From an uncultured Thermoleophilaceae bacterium (GTDB lineage: Bacteria; Actinomycetota; Thermoleophilia; Solirubrobacterales; Thermoleophilaceae): 64,000 nucleotides of DNA. The stretch covers positions 32,000-95,999 of the forward strand of contig CAWFBT010000016.1 in the NCBI GenBank assembly GCA_963814095.1, read 5' to 3'. The position numbers and the translations under genes were made by a program. How positions within the stretch are numbered: position 1 is the stretch's first letter; each line of letters begins with the position of its first letter. The notes below the pieces were generated by a model. That model was not told where the DNA came from. It saw only the letters and a program-made list of their open reading frames with translations, and ran no database searches. Shown piece after piece: positions 2,095-62,385 of this stretch.

Positions 2095-2167
<73 letters not shown>

Positions 2168-3245: not shown

Positions 3246-3353
3246 GCGCGCATCGTTCCATAGCGGCAGCGGGTGATTCTCGTGCTCGGCTGCCTGACCT
3301 TCCTGGGAGCCCTGATCCGGATGGCAACCCTGCCGGTGCAGCCGGCGACCTAG

Positions 3354-3425
3354 TAGCCCCGACGAGAATCGAACTCGCGCTACGAGAGTGAAAGTCTCGC
3401 GTGCTAACCACTACACCACGGGGCC
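3354..3425 (-). tRNA. tRNA-Glu (anticodon TTC)
   Basis: Reverse complement GGCCCCGTGGTGTAGTGGTTAGCACGCGAGACTTTCACTCTCGTAGCGCGAGTTCGATTCTCGTCGGGGCTA. Anticodon stem CGAGA/TCTCG, loop CTTTCAC. Confidence 0.9.
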
Positions 3426-3448: not shown

Positions 3449-4150
3449 TCAGTAGGGCGGGACGAAGGCGTCCCAGCGGAGCTCCGGGCGCTGCGCCGGA
3501 CAGCGGAGCACGGCGAGCCCGCCGGTCCCGCTCGGGACTCCCCGTCGCCATCGCCGGGCGCGCCAGCGAAAGCCGTCCGGGAGCGCGCCGGGCTCCAGTG
3601 CGAGGCCGAGGTTGCGCTCCGCGTACGCGACGGCGGTGCGGATGGATGGCATCCACATGTCGTCCATCACGATCAGCCCCTCGGGGCGGACCAGCCGCGT
3701 CATGAAGTACAGGTCCATGAGCGCCGACTCGAAGCGGTGATCGCCGTCGACGAAGGCGATGTCGAAGCTCCGCCCTACCGACACAAGCCGCGGCAACGCG
3801 AGCTGACTCTCCTCCTCGATGACCTCGACGTGGTCTCGCACACCGGCCTCCTCCAGAGCCATCAGCCCGGCACCGCCCCACGAGGACTCCTGGAACGGAT
3901 CGATCGCGAGGTGACTTCCGCCGCGACCGATCACCGCCCGGCAGAAGAACAGCGCAGACATCCCGAGCGCAAGACCGACCTCGATCGTCTGCTCTGCACC
4001 TTCGGCGCTGGCTAGCTCATACAGCGCCTCGCCCTGGTCGCGCTCGATGCTGTGCGGCGAGAGCGCGATCATGTCGCCGCTCCGCGTGGGCACGTGGCCG
4101 CGCGCGTAGGTCTCGGCCAGATGCGCGTTGAGCCGCTCCGCGACGGTCAC
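3449..4150 (-). CDS. Class I SAM-dependent O-methyltransferase (caffeoyl-CoA OMT-like)
   Basis: 233-aa ORF with motif-I-like IEVGLALGMSALFF and FVDGDH, resembling Methyltransf_24/O-MT family members. Confidence 0.75.
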   Translation of the reverse strand: MTVAERLNAHLAETYARGHVPTRSGDMIALSPHSIERDQGEALYELASAEGAEQTIEVGLALGMSALFFCRAVIGRGGSHLAIDPFQESSWGGAGLMALEEAGVRDHVEVIEEESQLALPRLVSVGRSFDIAFVDGDHRFESALMDLYFMTRLVRPEGLIVMDDMWMPSIRTAVAYAERNLGLALEPGALPDGFRWRARRWRRGVPSGTGGLAVLRCPAQRPELRWDAFVPPY

Positions 4151-4163
4151 GCGGAGCCTTCAG

Positions 4164-4479
4164 TGGGTCGCCTGGGACTCGAACCCAGAACCAACGGATT
4201 AACAATCCCGCACCGGCTCTCACCGGCCGCCGCGGGCGCGGCGTTGCGGGCTGGACCATCTCTTCGCCCTCGGCTCGACGTTAGGGCGGGCGGCGTATGG
4301 CCTCTGAGGGCTCTCCGGATATCCGGGTTGCCTGCTGATTGCCCAATCCCGGGGATTTTCACCATTCGGTACCCACGGGCTCTAAGGGGGTTCCAGCAAA
4401 CAGCCGCCGACCAACCAGCGGTTTCCCGACTGGCGCTCCTTTTCAAAGTCCGCTGCTCTACCAATTGAGCTAACGACCC
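4164..4479 (-). tRNA. tRNA-Lys (anticodon TTT), split gene: exon 1 4446..4479, exon 2 4164..4202
   Basis: Joined exons give GGGTCGTTAGCTCAATTGGTAGAGCAGCGGACTT|TTAATCCGTTGGTTCTGGGTTCGAGTCCCAGGCGACCCA. This is a canonical class I cloverleaf, very close to E. coli-type tRNA-Lys(UUU), with anticodon loop CTTTTAA. Confidence 0.85.
4203..4445 (-). ncRNA. Group I intron (IC3-like) inside tRNA-Lys, between positions 34 and 35
   Basis: 243 nt. The 5' exon ends in U and the intron ends in G (…GCGGGAUUG). It has a GAAA-capped hairpin CCAGUCGG-GAAA-CCGCUGG near the 5' end. The core CAGAGGCC…CCCUAACGUCGAGCCGAGGGCGAAGAGAUGGUCC resembles, from memory, the P7/P8 region of cyanobacterial tRNA-Leu(UAA) and Azoarcus tRNA-Ile introns. 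No internal ORF. Confidence 0.8.
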
Positions 4480-4538
4480 AGCGGCCAATTATGGCGCGTG
4501 CGACGACGGGCGGGTGCTGGGTGCGCCCGGACCCGGCG

Positions 4539-4874
4539 TCAGGCCGCTGCGACTTCGCCGCTAGTCGCCTTCGGCGGCTCCGCCGTAAGCACGGCGTCCA
4601 GCAGACCCGGGAAGCGCCCGTCGAGCTCGTCCTTGCGGAGCGAGAGCATGCGCGTCCGGCCGTCGGGGCGGGTCCTCACCACGCCGGACTCGCGCAGCAC
4701 GCGGAAGTGGTGCGAGAGCGTGGCCTTCGAGAGACCCAGATCGAAGGTGCCGCAGGTGCACTCGTCGCGGATCGCGAGCTGTCGGACGATCTGCAACCTG
4801 GCGGGATCGCTGAGGGCGTGGAGCACGCCGGGAAGCTCGAGCTCCGCGCAAGATGGGTGGTGGGGCTCTCTCAT
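4539..4874 (-). CDS. ArsR/SmtB family transcriptional regulator
   Basis: 111 aa. LHALSDPARLQIVRQL…CTCGTFDLGLSKATLSHHFRVLRESGVV is the typical winged-helix ArsR signature. Confidence 0.85.
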   Translation of the reverse strand: MREPHHPSCAELELPGVLHALSDPARLQIVRQLAIRDECTCGTFDLGLSKATLSHHFRVLRESGVVRTRPDGRTRMLSLRKDELDGRFPGLLDAVLTAEPPKATSGEVAAA

Positions 4875-4943: not shown

Positions 4944-6542
4944 TCAGTGCCGGAAGTGCCGGCGAGCCGTGAACACCATCGCTACGCCCGCGGCGTCGCA
5001 CGCGTCGACGACCTCGGGATCACGCTGCGAGCCGCCCGGCTGGATGATCGCGCGCACGCCCGCCTCGATCGCGAGCTGCGGCCCGTCGGTGAACGGGAAG
5101 AAGGCGTCGGAGGCCATCACGGCCCCCTCGAGCGGACGCTCCGCCGCGCGCGCCTTGTCGATCGCGATGCGCACCGAGTCGACGCGGCTCATCTGCCCTG
5201 CCCCGAGGCCGACCGTGGCGAGCTCCTTGGCGAGCACGATCGCGTTCGAGCGCACGTGCTTGGCGACGCGCATCGCGAACAGCAGCTCGCCCCACTCCTG
5301 CTCGGTCGGCTTGCGCTCGGTCGCGACGCTCATGTCCTCGCGCAGCTCGAGGCCGGTGTCGCGGTCCTGCACGAGCAGCCCGCCGCGCACGCGCTTGTAG
5401 TCGTGCTCGTTGATCGTCGCCCGGCGGCGTTCCTGGTTGTGGAGGATGCGTACGTTCGGCTTCTGCATCAGGACGTCGAGCGCCTCCTCCGCGTAGCCGG
5501 GCGCGAACACGACCTCGACGAACATCGAGTGCAGCCTCTCGGCCAGCGCGCGGTCGACCGGGCGGTTGAAGCAGAAGACACCGCCGAACGCGCTCACGGG
5601 ATCGGTCGCGAGCGCGCGGTCGAACGCGTCGCTGAGATCCGTGCCGACGGCCGCGCCGCACGGGTTGTTGTGCTTGACGATGGCCGCCGCCGGCAACTCG
5701 AAGTCCTCGACCAGTCTCCGTCCCGACTCGAGGTCGAGCAGGTTGTTGAACGAGAGCTCGCGGCCGTGCAGCTTCGACACCATCGAAAGCAGGTGCGAGC
5801 GCGCGCCGACCTCGGCGTAGTAGGCGGCGCGCTGATGCGGGTTCTCGCCGTAGGGCAGGTCGAGCACCTTCTCGTAAGAGCGCGTGTACTGGGACGGGAA
5901 GTCCTCCTCGCGCTCGGCGAACCAGCGCGAGATGGCGCTGTCGTAGCGCGCCGTGTACGCGAACGCCTCGAGCGCGAGCGTCTGGCGTGTCCGCGACGAC
6001 AGCTTGCCGGCGCTCTCCGTGAGCTCCTCGATGACGGCGTCGTAGCTCTCGGGTGAGACGACCACGGCTGTGTAGGCGTTGTTCTTGGCCGCAGCGCGAA
6101 TCAGCGTCGGCCCGCCGATGTCGATGTTCTCGATCACCTCGGCGTCCTCGACGCCGCGCCGGGACGAGACGCGCTCGAACGGATAGAGGTTCACGCACAC
6201 GAGGTCGATCGGCTCGATCTCGAGCGAGTTCAGCGTGTCGACGTGCTCCACCTCGGAGCGCACGGCCAGCACGCCGGCATGTATGCGCGGGTTGAGCGTC
6301 TTGACGCGCCCGTCGAGGATCTCCGGGAAGCCCGTGTAGTCCTCGACCGCGCGGGCGTCGATGCCCTCCTCGGCGAGCTCGCGGGCCGTGCCTCCCGTCG
6401 AGACGATCTCGACGCCGAGCTCGGCGAGGCCGCGCGCGAACTCGACGAGGCCGCGCTTGTCGGACACGCTCAGGAGAGCGCGCCTGATTCGCACCTCGCC
6501 CGGGGCGGTCAGCTCGACGCCGCGCGGCTCAGTCTGCGACAT
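4944..6542 (-). CDS. purH: Bifunctional AICAR transformylase / IMP cyclohydrolase
   Basis: 532 aa with an MGS-like N-terminus (ALLSVSDKRGLVEFARGL…VSTGGTA) and the AICARFT domain. It ends …MVFTARRHFRH. Confidence 0.95.
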   Translation of the reverse strand: MSQTEPRGVELTAPGEVRIRRALLSVSDKRGLVEFARGLAELGVEIVSTGGTARELAEEGIDARAVEDYTGFPEILDGRVKTLNPRIHAGVLAVRSEVEHVDTLNSLEIEPIDLVCVNLYPFERVSSRRGVEDAEVIENIDIGGPTLIRAAAKNNAYTAVVVSPESYDAVIEELTESAGKLSSRTRQTLALEAFAYTARYDSAISRWFAEREEDFPSQYTRSYEKVLDLPYGENPHQRAAYYAEVGARSHLLSMVSKLHGRELSFNNLLDLESGRRLVEDFELPAAAIVKHNNPCGAAVGTDLSDAFDRALATDPVSAFGGVFCFNRPVDRALAERLHSMFVEVVFAPGYAEEALDVLMQKPNVRILHNQERRRATINEHDYKRVRGGLLVQDRDTGLELREDMSVATERKPTEQEWGELLFAMRVAKHVRSNAIVLAKELATVGLGAGQMSRVDSVRIAIDKARAAERPLEGAVMASDAFFPFTDGPQLAIEAGVRAIIQPGGSQRDPEVVDACDAAGVAMVFTARRHFRH

Positions 6543-21023: not shown

Positions 21024-22307
21024 CTAGGTGATGCGGTCGAGGCGCCCGACGACGGTGCGGGCGTGGCGCACGAAGGCGGCCGGATCGAACAGCGCGTCGA
21101 GATCGAGCTCGGGGGCGGCCTCGGCGAGCAGGCCACGAAATTCGATCCCCTCGTCCCAGGCACGTTGGGCCGCCTGCTGCACCGTCCGGTACGCGTCGTC
21201 GCGCGAGCGCCCCGCCTCGACGAGCGCCAGCAGCGCGCGCTGCGAGTAGAGCGCCCCGTGCGTGGCGTTCAGGTTCGCCCTCATGCGATCGGCATGGACC
21301 GTCATCCCCTCGACCACTCGCACGGCCAGGTGCTGCGCGTAGTCGAGGAGGATCGTGGCGTCGGGCAGCGTCACGCGCTCGACGGACGAGTGCGAGATAT
21401 CGCGCTCGTGCCAGAGCGCCACGTTCTCGAGCCCGGTGAGCGCGTACGCGCGCAGCAGCCGCGCGATCCCGGTGATGCGCTCGGTCACGATCGGGTTGCG
21501 CTTGTGCGGCATCGCCGAGGAGCCCTTCTGCGCCCCCTCCCGGAACGGCTCCTCGACCTCGCGCACCTCGGTGCGCTGCAGGTGGCGGATCTCCGTGGCG
21601 AAGCGCTCGAGCCCCGCGCCCGCCAGCGCGATCGCCTCGAGCAGCTCGGCGTGGCGGTCGCGCGGCACGACCTGCGTCGACACGTCCTCCCGACCGAGCC
21701 CGAGCCGGCGCAGAACGGCCTCCTCGATATCCGGCTCGTTGGCGGCGTACGTCCCGACCGCGCCCGAGAGCGCCCCCACCGAGACGACCTCGGCCGCGCG
21801 CTCGAGCCGGCGCACGTTGCGGTTCGCCTCGAAGGCGAAGCCGGCGAGCTTGACGCCGAAGGTGGTCGGCTCGGCGTGCACGCCATGGGTGCGGCCGACG
21901 CACAGCGTGTCGACGTGCTCGCGCGCGCGCCGGATGAGCGCGTCGCGGTAATCGTGCGCGCCACCCACGAGCACCATCGCGGCCTGCGAGAGCTGCAGGG
22001 CGAGGCCGGTGTCGAGGACGTCGGAGGAGGTCAGTCCGTGGTGCACCCAGCGGCCCGCTTCGCCGACCGAGCCCGCGACCACGTCGACGAACGCCGCGAC
22101 GTCGTGGTCGGTCACCTTCTCGCGCTCCTTCACGTCCTCGACCGTGAACGAGGCGCGATCGCGAATCACGTCGCCGTCCGCCTCCGGCACGACGCCCCGC
22201 TCGACGAGCGCGTCGACCACGGCCAGCTCCACCTGCAGCCAGGTATCGAGCTTGCGCCGCTCGGACCAGATCGCCCCCATTTCGGGGCGGGTGTAGCGCT
22301 CGATCAC
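21024..22307 (-). CDS. purB: Adenylosuccinate lyase
   Basis: 427 aa, fumarate-lyase family, signature GSSAMPHKRNP. Confidence 0.95.
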   Translation of the reverse strand: MIERYTRPEMGAIWSERRKLDTWLQVELAVVDALVERGVVPEADGDVIRDRASFTVEDVKEREKVTDHDVAAFVDVVAGSVGEAGRWVHHGLTSSDVLDTGLALQLSQAAMVLVGGAHDYRDALIRRAREHVDTLCVGRTHGVHAEPTTFGVKLAGFAFEANRNVRRLERAAEVVSVGALSGAVGTYAANEPDIEEAVLRRLGLGREDVSTQVVPRDRHAELLEAIALAGAGLERFATEIRHLQRTEVREVEEPFREGAQKGSSAMPHKRNPIVTERITGIARLLRAYALTGLENVALWHERDISHSSVERVTLPDATILLDYAQHLAVRVVEGMTVHADRMRANLNATHGALYSQRALLALVEAGRSRDDAYRTVQQAAQRAWDEGIEFRGLLAEAAPELDLDALFDPAAFVRHARTVVGRLDRIT

Positions 22308-22809: not shown

Positions 22810-24107
22810 GCCTCGACCCTATCCACTGCCCGCAATGCGATGTCGGTTCGCAGCTGACGGCCGTCGAAGTCGATCTCGCCGGCGGCCGCGTAGGCACGCT
22901 CGCGAGCCTCGGCCGGACCGTCGCCGAGCGCCGTCACCGCGAGCACGCGCCCGCCGGCCGTGACCAGCTCGCCGTCGCGCTCGGCAGTGCCGGCCTGGAA
23001 CACCTCCGCGCCCGCCGACTGGGCCTCCTCGACGCCGGAGATCACGTCGCCCTTGGAACTGGACTCCGGGTATCCGCGCGAAGCGAGCACGAGCGTCACC
23101 GCCCAGTCGTCCGACCACTCCGGCTCGATCCCCTCGAGCCCGCCCAAGCGAGTGGAGGCCTCGAGCAGCTCGAGCAGATCCGAGCGCAGGCGCGGCAGCA
23201 CGGCCTGCGTCTCCGGGTCGCCGAAGCGCGCGTTGTACTCGAGCACCTTGGGTCCCGACGGCCCCATCATCAGGCCCGCATAGAGCACGCCGTGGAAGGG
23301 CGTGCCGCGGCGGCGCAGCTCGTCGACGATCGGCTGGTGGACGATGGCGGCGAGCTCCTGCGCGCGCCCGGCGTCGAAGCCGGGCACCGGCGAGTAGCTG
23401 CCCATGCCACCCGTGTTCGGGCCCTCGTCGCCGTCGAAGATGCGCTTGTAGTCCTGCGCGGGCGCGAGCGGCACGGCGCGCTCGCCGTCGCAGAGCGCGA
23501 GCAGCGACAGCTCCTCGCCCTCGAGGAACTCCTCGAGCACGACCTCGGTGTCGCCGAAGCGCCGCTCGCCGAAGAACACGTCGAGCGCTGCGCGCGCCTC
23601 GCGCTCGTCCGAAGCGATGATCACTCCCTTGCCGGCGGCCAGCACGTCGGCCTTCAGCACCGCCGGATAGGACGCGCAGGCGAGGTGCTCGGCGGCCTCC
23701 TCGCGCGTGCGGAAGAGGACATGCGATGCGGTCGGCACGCCCGTGTCCTTCATCAGCTGCTTGGCGTACGCCTTCGAGCCCTCGATGCGCGCGGCCTCCT
23801 TGCTGGGCCCGAAGGCGGGCACGCCGGCGCTCGCGAGCTCGTCGACGAGGCCGGCCACGAGCGGGGCCTCGGGCCCCACCACGACCAGATCGACCTCGCG
23901 CTCGCGCGCGAGCGCGACGAGGTCGTCGTCAGGCAGGCACTCGACGCCGTCTCTTGCGATGCCCGCGTTGCCGGGCGCACACAGCAGCTCCGGCTCGCGC
24001 GGGCTGCGCAGCAGCGTCCGGACCAGCGCGTGCTCGCGCCCGCCGCCGCCGACCACGAGGAGCCTGGCGCGAGCGGCCGGCTCGGCCGGCTGCGAAGCGA
24101 TTCCCAC
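22806..24107 (-). CDS. purD: Phosphoribosylamine-glycine ligase
   Basis: GTG start ([28 protein letters not shown]…) abuts the stop of the GYD gene (TAGTG). ATP-grasp fold. The longer ORF-track start lies inside the upstream gene. Confidence 0.92.
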
Positions 24108-59638: not shown

Positions 59639-62275
<2,637 letters not shown>

Positions 62276-62282
62276 CTCACCT

Positions 62283-62370
62283 TCCTCCACCGGCATTACC
62301 CGGGTCAGGTTCGACGGTCGGCGGCGCCGCAGCCACCCTCTCAGCCCGGTTTCCCCCGAGCTCCCGTGTT
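62283..62370 (-). promoter_or_regulatory. TPP (THI-box) riboswitch
   Basis: The minus strand reads CACGGGAGCUCGGGGGAAACCGGGCUGAGAGGGUGGC…CGAACCUGACCCGGGUAAUGCCGGUGGAGGAAGG. It contains the conserved CUGAGA and ACCUGA.C.GG.UAAUGCC.G elements directly upstream of thiO. Confidence 0.85.
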
Positions 62371-62385
62371 CGCGTCAGATGGTAC

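Follow-up and report, generated by a model that had tools for sequence, protein, structure and literature searches.

The locus considered here lies in a 64,000-nt stretch of DNA (hereafter the window) from an uncultured Thermoleophilaceae bacterium (contig CAWFBT010000016.1, positions 32,000 to 95,999), and the question it raises is what a 243-nt insert is doing in the middle of a sequence that otherwise reads as a tRNA-Lys(UUU) gene. A first-pass annotation, made from the sequence letters, had proposed that the insert was a group I intron in the anticodon loop, and that a tRNA-Lys(UUU) host for such an intron was undescribed. The first of these proposals was confirmed by the computational analyses described below, i.e., the feature is a 243-nt group I intron between nucleotides 34 and 35 of tRNA-Lys(UUU), and the second was not.

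The tRNA identity of the locus follows from its exons. When 4479..4446 and 4202..4164, both on the minus strand, are joined, the resulting 73-mer is called by ARAGORN as tRNA-Lys(ttt), with a full cloverleaf in which all four arms pair. The 5' exon (34 nt, GGGUCGUUAGCUCAAUUGGUAGAGCAGCGGACUU, with the 3' end ...GGACUU) holds tRNA nucleotides 1-34, i.e., the acceptor 5' strand, the D arm, the 5' strand of the anticodon stem and C32, U33 and U34, and its last base, U34 at 4446, serves as U(-1) at the 5' splice site. The 3' exon (39 nt, UUAAUCCGUUGGUUCUGGGUUCGAGUCCCAGGCGACCCA, with the 5' start UUAAUCC...) holds nucleotides 35-73, comprising U35, U36 and A37, the 3' strand of the anticodon stem, the variable loop, the T arm and the acceptor 3' strand; the discriminator is A73 and CCA is not encoded. 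The proposed closeness to the Escherichia coli tRNA-Lys was borne out by an identity of 82.2% across the entire length (100%) to the genes annotated as tRNA-Lys in all 5,426 complete E. coli genomes, and the cloverleaf, the anticodon UUU, A73 and this likeness to known tRNA-Lys are those of a bacterial tRNA-Lys(UUU). Only the boundary between U34 and U35 leaves a U ahead of the 5' splice site together with a terminal G in the intron, and an exon-anchored pattern (a tRNA-Lys 5' half, 203-263 nt ending in G, and a 3' half) produced one match in the window and none in 100 shuffles. A protein-spliced bulge-helix-bulge intron of the archaeal/eukaryal kind (position 37/38) was excluded by the 34/35 insertion and by the match to the group I model. 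Two open reading frames (ORFs) that overlap the region (4147..4488 on the minus strand and 4052..4468 on the plus strand) had been set aside as artefacts, and they are, because their guanine plus cytosine (GC) content at third positions (0.61 and 0.64) lacks the host signature, which is 0.88-0.95 in the nearby purH, arsR, purL and methyltransferase genes, and because the intron lengths of relatives occupy all three classes modulo 3.

The intron itself (4203..4445, minus strand) starts UGAAAAGGAG and ends GGGAUUG, with the omega-G at 4203. It has no ORF, that of a homing endonuclease included, and its GC content of 0.66 matches that of the host. The Rfam group I intron family, RF00028, matched 4455..4239 on the minus strand over its full model (1-253) at 46.7 bits, with an E-value of 9.7e-11 in a local search and 9.6e-9 across the whole window. 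The intron had been left unannotated because this score lies below the curated cut-off of 50. Several homologues at the same site, here designated by locus numbers, score above the cut-off (L021, 53.2; L124, 56.3; L041, 59.3; and L122, 79.8 bits), and of 16 Lys-intron loci scanned 4 reached it and 12 remained below; the Rfam tRNA model reported none of the split tRNAs in these 16 loci. Default ARAGORN and an Rfam scan of the region at gathering thresholds returned only the neighbouring tRNA-Val (2095..2167) and tRNA-Glu (3353..3425). The intron mode of ARAGORN gave a tRNA-Ser(tga) with a 227-nt intron, which was rejected as a miscall that arises when an intron is forced into the canonical position (39/40). 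By its authors' own remarks on such genes, tRNAscan-SE misses them as well (PMC8450103).

The same insertion was then sought in relatives, using one genome per species (GTDB set) and a pattern of tRNA-Lys(UUU) exon features alone that accepted any 203-263-nt insert after U34 ending in G. At least 120 loci matched, and the removal of 20 of the 120 as tandem tRNA-Val(UAC) and tRNA-Asn(GUU) pairs, mostly from Babeliales/Dependentiae, left at least 100 more tRNA-Lys(UUU) genes interrupted at this position, most of them in Thermoleophilia/Solirubrobacterales. A set of 100 of these loci together with the window contained 63 distinct spliced tRNAs, in which compensatory changes have preserved the acceptor, anticodon and T stems, and the exons are therefore under tRNA-type selection. 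Identity of the window intron to its counterparts in other Thermoleophilia is 85-92%, the closest among the matches listed being in Thermoleophilaceae metagenome-assembled genomes (MAGs), at 92% (L020) and 91% (L009 and L021). No uninterrupted tRNA-Lys was found in the 8-kb flanks of the 100 loci examined, nor in the 64-kb window. Nesterenkonia alkaliphila F10 has two tRNA-Lys(UUU) genes, on two contigs (L028 and L043), both interrupted, by introns of 218 and 219 nt that belong to the second lineage described below (type B). A scan of metagenomes for intron-less tRNA-Lys(UUU) with a Thermoleophilia-like variable-loop/T-arm signature gave at least 120 matches, none of which shared the flanks of the window and none of whose 25 commonest variants (of 64 found) was identical to the window's spliced tRNA; by these results the signature is not lineage-specific, and the scan does not bear on fixation or polymorphism of the intron within Thermoleophilia. 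One locus of the survey, L088 (CAMCUD010000009.1, labelled MAG: Bifidobacterium breve), carries a split tRNA-Lys of Solirubrobacterales type, with an intron GC content of about 0.64 and a start and end of the intron that resemble those in L006 and L054 (Svornostia abyssi); the name on this contig probably stems from faulty binning or labelling.

The alignment of 78 non-redundant sequences from this site (A1) comprised two types, with 45 of type A, including the window, and 33 of type B, and it was on type A that the structure of the intron was examined. A P1-P9 structure (P1, P2, P3, P4, P5, P5a, P5b, P6, P6a, P7, P8, P9, P9a and P9b) was hand-drawn on the window sequence according to the group I consensus and projected onto a MAFFT alignment of the 45 sequences that had been made without structural information (A2). 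With the P3/P7 pseudoknot included, 87.5% of cells were paired versus 37-49% when partners were slid by 1-3 columns, a comparison that is favoured by the derivation of the structure from the window sequence, while the double-change counts are unaffected by it. More than half of the pairs (38 of 71) had changed on both sides, and there were 270 doubly changed cells versus 84 ± 8 in shuffles, with 0 of 500 shuffles reaching any of the measures. An unconstrained minimum free energy (MFE) fold of the window intron recovered P2, P3, P4, P5, P5a, P5b, P6a, P8, P9, P9a and P9b (z = -2.46).

All of the structural elements lie on the minus strand. In P1 (4436..4448), C32-U33-U34 and the first intron base, U1 (4448..4445), pair with the guide GGAG (4439..4436), so that the splice-site wobble is formed by U34 (4446) and a G (4438) of the guide. 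The pairing that had been proposed, of exon CUU with an intron GAG, thus held, with the guide extended to GGAG, and this guide is present in all type A sequences, a conservation not imposed by the search pattern, while U(-1) is fixed by the pattern and by the tRNA itself. The C-G pair and the U.G wobble were each found in 45/45 sequences, and the 11 rows in which the U-A pair seemed to be missed reflect a 2-column MAFFT shift of a Planctomycetota subgroup. The As of the P1 loop, GAAAA (4444..4440), could pair with the UU of the 3' exon as a 2-bp P10. The GAAA-capped hairpin noticed after P1 is P2 (4415..4433, CCAG(U)CGG-GAAA-CCGCUGG, with the tetraloop L2 at 4425..4422), and all 7 of its 7 pairs have changed on both sides. 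Likewise, the CAGAGGCC...GAAGAGAUGGUCC block that had been taken for a P7-P8 core proved to hold P7, the 3' strand of P3, P8, J8/7 and the 3' strand of P7. The P3 strands, GGCGGC (4403..4408) and GCCGCC (4289..4294), are each other's partners and show compensatory changes in 4 of 6 pairs (GC/CG 30/15; GC/AU/CG/UA 16/13/4/1). In the P4-P5 domain (4333..4398), P4 pairs UGCUGG (4398..4393) with UCAGCA (4338..4333) and P5 pairs CCC (4388..4386) with GGG (4344..4342), both invariant in the 45 sequences, and these helices are extended, in type A only, by P5a (4379..4372 / 4354..4348, with 3 covarying pairs) and P5b (4370..4368 / 4363..4361). P6 and P6a follow (4309..4332), the former (GGC 4332..4330 / GCC 4311..4309) with CG to UA/AU changes and 1 pair changed on both sides, and the latter (CCGG-AUAU-CCGG, 4326..4315) with covariation in 4 of 4 pairs.

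Covariation extends to the catalytic core. The 5' strand of P7, G(A)GGCCA with its bulged A (4298..4304), pairs with 4253..4258 to form the pseudoknot with P3; P7 is 100% paired, with 15 sequences showing a CG to UA change, 11 an AU to UA change and 15 a GU to AU change, amounting to 2 pairs changed on both sides plus one GU/AU, and it presumably holds the guanosine-binding G-C pair. The P8 hairpin (4266..4287, GCCCU-AA-CG...CG-AGGGC) is 96.8% paired, with compensatory changes in 4 pairs, and its CCUAAC/GAGG motif resembles a GAAA receptor of the 11-nt type, at which L2 would dock by analogy with the established example of the Azoarcus intron. J8/7 (GAAGAGA, 4265..4259) and the P7 3' strand (UGGUCC, 4258..4253), which together span 4253..4265, were located from the RF00028 match and the alignment, and their G..A..GUCC is invariant in 78/78 sequences. 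In the P9 domain (4204..4249), P9 (CCGC/GCGG, 4249..4246 / 4211..4208) and the P9b hairpin (4227..4212) are 100% paired and show covariation in 2 and 4 pairs, respectively; they are accompanied by the P9a hairpin (4242..4229); the P9b loop (4221..4218) is a GAGA tetraloop of the GNRA family, and AUU then precedes the omega-G. Although the two lineages are only about 60% identical, P7 AGAG.C, the J8/7-P7' motif and the G-A-A of the L9 GNRA loop are invariant in both. The parts on which group I chemistry depends are present in the window intron, i.e., core helices P3-P8 that are foldable and kept by covariation, pseudoknot included, a P1 in which an internal guide forms the splice-site U.G wobble, a P7 with bulged A and invariant G-C pairs, a conserved J8/7, GNRA loops on P2 and P9b, and a terminal omega-G before the 3' splice site.

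The claim that a Lys(UUU) host is undescribed was not supported by the literature. By its own account, a bioRxiv preprint of Williams (2020, doi 10.1101/2020.01.27.920355) mapped 5,292 split bacterial tRNA genes and raised the number of intron classes from 4 to 21, and its seed alignment contains Mle24.Lys.3Ug, Mpe6.Lys.4Ug and Dba165.Lys.2Ug. Among 11 seeds compared, Mle24.Lys.3Ug was the best match to the window intron (72%). Its identity is higher still to two loci that align with the window in A2, with 92% for L041 (Agromyces terreus) and 89% for L090. The Lys.3Ug class and the window intron have in common the tRNA-Lys host, U(-1)/omega-G and an insertion that follows nucleotide 3 of the anticodon loop (U34), and the seed shares with the window GGAGCGCC-GAAA, UGCUGG, GAUUGGG.AAUCAGCAGG, UCAGAG.C., GAAGA.AU.GUCCAG and a P9 hairpin with a GNRA cap. 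The seed differs in coming from a seemingly Microbacteriaceae-like genome (closest matches Agromyces and Gryllotalpicola) and in having GACUA/UAGUC in P7 where the window, a Thermoleophilia variant, has GGCCA/UGGUC. By its sequence, the window intron is a new member, from Thermoleophilia, of the already catalogued Lys.3Ug class, overlooked rather than a new phenomenon. That catalogue is a preprint, not peer-reviewed, and its Lys.3Ug class is presented without experimental validation in the text describing it. No paper citing the preprint was found in the searchable literature, and a Lys host is unmentioned in the tRNADB-CE papers and a 2025 group I intron database, and is not named in the coverage of tRNA hosts in either the 2014 review of bacterial group I introns or the tRNAscan-SE 2.0 paper. 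A reported group I intron in cyanobacterial tRNA-Lys(CTT) (PMC5733544, 2017) was set aside, as the 22-49 nt tRNA-finder calls behind it are too short for group I ribozymes.

Comparison with better-known introns gave partial support to a likeness between the window intron and subgroup IC3. The insertion point is indeed that of the tRNA-Leu(UAA) intron (Leu.3Ug in Williams 2020), as had been claimed, and the two are alike in the pairing of exon C32-U33-U34 with the guide, the lack of an ORF and a length of about 250 nt. The tRNA-Leu(UAA) intron, however, has another host tRNA and a classical IC3 core (AAAUUCGGGGAA...AAUCCCGAGCCAAG...GUAGAGACUA), and that core is nearer to type B Lys introns (75-79%) than to the type A intron of the window (59%). 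The tRNA-Ile(CAU) IC3 ribozyme of Azoarcus sp. BH72 likewise interrupts a bacterial tRNA and is compact, its P1 having 3-4 bp and its P2 and P9 being capped by GAAA tetraloops, and the same two-step, two-metal transesterification is expected, by analogy, of the window intron; it differs in its loop position 5 (Ile2.5Ug), in the absence of a P5a/P5b extension and in its P4/P6, and is 61% identical to the window intron. Subgroup IC3 is marked by classical P4/P6 sequences, an unextended P5 and tetraloop contacts of L2 with P8 and of L9 with P5. The window intron has the L2 GAAA, the L9b GNRA and the receptor-like P8 motif, but its P4/P6 (UGCUGG/UCAGCA) and its P5a/P5b set it apart from the introns of Azoarcus, Leu and Arg, and the classical core that Azoarcus and tRNA-Leu share (UUCGGGG/CCCGAGCC) is found in type B instead. 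The plastid trnK(UUU) intron likewise interrupts a tRNA-Lys of anticodon UUU in its anticodon loop, but it is a group IIA intron of about 2.5 kb that encodes matK, unrelated in class and mechanism, and the likeness is in the host gene alone.

The type B introns show that a second lineage occupies the same site. Type A is characterised by its P4/P6 (UGCUGG...AAUCAGCAGG), by a P7 start of CCUCAGAGRCY and by the P5a/P5b extension, and occurs in Thermoleophilia/Solirubrobacterales, Microbacteriaceae (Agromyces and Gryllotalpicola), Gemmataceae and other Planctomycetota, and one Chloroflexota MAG. Type B has the classical IC3 core (AAAGUCGGGGAAC...AAUCCCGAGCCAAG...GGUGUAGAGRCY) and occurs in Sphingomicrobium and other Alphaproteobacteria, Gemmatimonadales, Nesterenkonia and an Opitutaceae MAG (e.g., L016:3167-3401, L028:4940-5175 and L030:5569-5818, compared with the window stretch 4195-4455). 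The window intron is about 57-61% identical to type B introns, which match Mpe6.Lys.4Ug best (up to 85%), along with Arg and Leu seeds (Arg.3Ug and Leu.3Ug). The presence of two lineages suggests that group I introns have landed repeatedly at C32-U33-U34.

Both lineages that have colonised this one anticodon-loop site are also found on viral contigs. Five IMG/VR contigs carry a tRNA-Lys(UUU) split after U34 (L121:3481-3783, L122:730-1006, L124:10146-10419, L126:902-1178 and L127:3079-3326), the other 2 of 7 viral pattern matches having been removed as tandem tRNAs. The introns of L122 and L126 are type A-like, those of L124 and L127 are type B-like, and that of L121 has a P7 extension. L124, L126 and L127 lie within phage-style tRNA arrays, and the neighbours in L124 match PHROGs families of HNH endonucleases and RNA ligases. 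In its treatment of phages, the 2014 review described group I introns as then known solely in protein-coding genes (PMC3984707). When deposited phage genomes were queried with a viral type A Lys intron, only partial core matches were returned, in Acinetobacter and Pseudomonas phages and none in a tRNA-Lys gene, with 78-89% identity over 65-100 nt. They lie in an unannotated stretch in the Acinetobacter phages (e.g., YMC13/03/R2096, 21043-21143) and inside an annotated portal/hypothetical gene in the Pseudomonas KIL phages (e.g., vB_PsyM_KIL1, 22932-22997). These matches may be unannotated group I introns.

The chromosomal surroundings of the split gene speak to its history. In the window, it is flanked by an O-methyltransferase gene (3449..4150) on one side and by an ArsR-type regulator gene (arsR, 4539..4874) and purH (4944..6542) on the other, all on the minus strand, with purN and purL as further neighbours. 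The flanks have 75-83% DNA identity to Thermoleophilaceae-labelled contigs, with up to 86% identity in the purH protein, e.g., L021, a Thermoleophilaceae locus, has 83% DNA identity over 4 kb and 86% amino-acid identity in purH. These similarities place the window in a Thermoleophilia (Actinomycetota) genome outside the set of representatives retrieved. Linkage of the split tRNA-Lys to purH was found in at least 30 Thermoleophilia genomes, over which purH amino-acid identity descends from 86% to 64%, and tRNA-Glu(UUC) was nearby in at least 43 loci and tRNA-Val(UAC) in at least 28. The conservation of this linkage across families and the host-like GC content argue for a long-resident, vertically inherited intron.

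Within this conserved neighbourhood, the closest relatives among the matches listed have a 333-bp block (4164..4496, the tRNA gene plus 17 upstream nucleotides) inverted relative to its flanks, with the methyltransferase gene retained on one side and arsR-purH on the other. The inverted arrangement is seen in L021:3506-3844, L020:7006-7337, L023, L031, L086, L116 and L084, while the block is on the purH strand in the window, in L019 and L064, and in Solirubrobacteraceae loci. A search around the window tRNA gene for inverted repeats that could explain the inversion found nothing convincing at the ends of the block. The 17 upstream nucleotides that move with the gene (4480..4496, minus strand) contain a CATAAT -10-like box, which may be its promoter element; a consensus scan for promoters and terminators did not call it, the sole promoter-like site reported being upstream of arsR, and the 'terminator' from the same scan was discarded as spurious, the intron stretch between P2 and P4 having been read as a hairpin. 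Two riboswitch matches were noted in passing: a sub-threshold, full-length match to the thiamine pyrophosphate (TPP) riboswitch at 62264-62377 of the window, minus strand (RF00059, 46.2 bits versus a gathering score of 54.3, E = 7e-6), and, about 0.6 kb from the split tRNA-Lys of a Gemmatimonadales MAG, a c-di-GMP-I-GGC (cyclic di-guanosine monophosphate) riboswitch above its gathering score (L030:4903-4999, minus strand, RF03167, 62.1 bits).

The explanation that very probably accounts for the locus is that of a functional tRNA-Lys(UUU) gene, interrupted between U34 and U35 by a compact, ORF-less Lys.3Ug group I intron, the removal of which would most likely proceed by guanosine-initiated self-splicing. 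The gene would be transcribed as a precursor of about 316 nt, in which the intron would fold to the P1-P9 structure with its P3/P7 pseudoknot, the L2 GAAA and L9b GNRA loops probably clamping the core in the manner of the Azoarcus ribozyme. P7 would then bind an exogenous guanosine for attack on the phosphate after U34, which is held in its U.G wobble by GGAG, and the freed 3'-OH of U34 would in turn attack after the omega-G (4203), joining ...ACUU to UUAAUCC... and releasing the intron. Since the anticodon loop CUUUUAA exists only after splicing, modification of the wobble base and of position 37 would have to follow it.

A number of points weigh against this reading, and rival explanations draw on some of them. 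The RF00028 score of the window intron is below the gathering score; the invariance of U(-1) and the omega-G among the retrieved loci arises by construction, as both were demanded by the search pattern; the search for a second, uninterrupted tRNA-Lys(UUU) was confined to the window and the 8-kb flanks of the loci; and P1 is just 4 bp, with a P10 that is at most 2 bp and not conserved. The sub-threshold score and the span of that search, outside of which lies the rest of the genome, would fit a decayed pseudo-tRNA, i.e., an intron remnant in a dead tRNA-Lys copy, with the work done by an intact tRNA-Lys(UUU) elsewhere. Such decay is extremely improbable in view of the conservation of exons and intron core, with compensatory changes, across at least 100 species-level genomes, the invariance of the catalytic-core nucleotides, the retention of the locus beside purH across families, the finding that both N. 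alkaliphila copies are interrupted, and the failure to find an uninterrupted tRNA-Lys in the flanks of any locus examined. It is also very unlikely that the intron is a mobile element newly arrived in this tRNA gene. Related introns in Planctomycetota, Chloroflexota, Microbacteriaceae and viral contigs mean that horizontal transfer of the class has clearly happened somewhere, but the window intron has no homing endonuclease ORF, has the GC content of its host, and is closely related to other Thermoleophilia introns, at least 30 of which are at the purH-linked locus, and the earlier view that it was not a recent acquisition was accordingly upheld.

The short P1 and minimal P10 lead to a different concern, namely that splicing may need help from the anticodon stem or from protein chaperones. 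A genuine but non-autonomous group I intron, i.e., a GC-rich, misfolding-prone RNA in need of a host protein such as an RNA chaperone or a maturase-like factor, is an alternative that we consider unlikely, though worth keeping in mind, and the rugged MFE ensemble, in which the MFE structure has a frequency of 0.009, is in its favour. Against it, the window intron has the full core and the peripheral elements (the L2 and L9 tetraloops), and the nearest relatives that have been studied, the Anabaena tRNA-Leu and Azoarcus tRNA-Ile introns, self-splice efficiently with an equally short P1, using the anticodon stem. The review of bacterial group I introns by Hausner et al. (2014, PMC3984707) can be cited both for such splicing and for protein-assisted group I splicing, which is well established. 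A functional tRNA gene with a probably self-splicing intron continues to be the reading we favour.

The concept of group I splicing is unchanged by this locus, which adds to a catalogue that has so far existed in a preprint alone, and supplies an extensive alignment, rich in covariation, of a ribozyme that is both compact and GC-rich. It makes plain that bacterial tRNA group I introns extend far beyond the four textbook hosts, and that an intron of this kind has long been retained, at a single chromosomal position, by one class of actinobacteria. There is also a practical consequence, in that standard tools are blind to the gene, and Thermoleophilia, along with many other genomes, will seem to lack tRNA-Lys(UUU), a seeming loss that can mislead analyses of codon usage, genome completeness and tRNA repertoires. 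Looking further, a tentative possibility is that the split gene is the sole tRNA-Lys(UUU) across Thermoleophilia, and hence presumably essential, with ribozyme splicing both obligatory and vertically inherited, and that the U34 site is a general landing pad with phages as vectors. If that were true, the site would have been colonised by at least two independent lineages via phage-borne split tRNA-Lys genes, in contradiction to an earlier picture in which the group I introns of phages keep out of tRNA genes, and the splicing of tRNA-Lys(UUU) in Thermoleophilia could be a checkpoint, sensitive to guanosine and Mg2+ or to temperature, on the supply of the tRNA for the reading of AAA.

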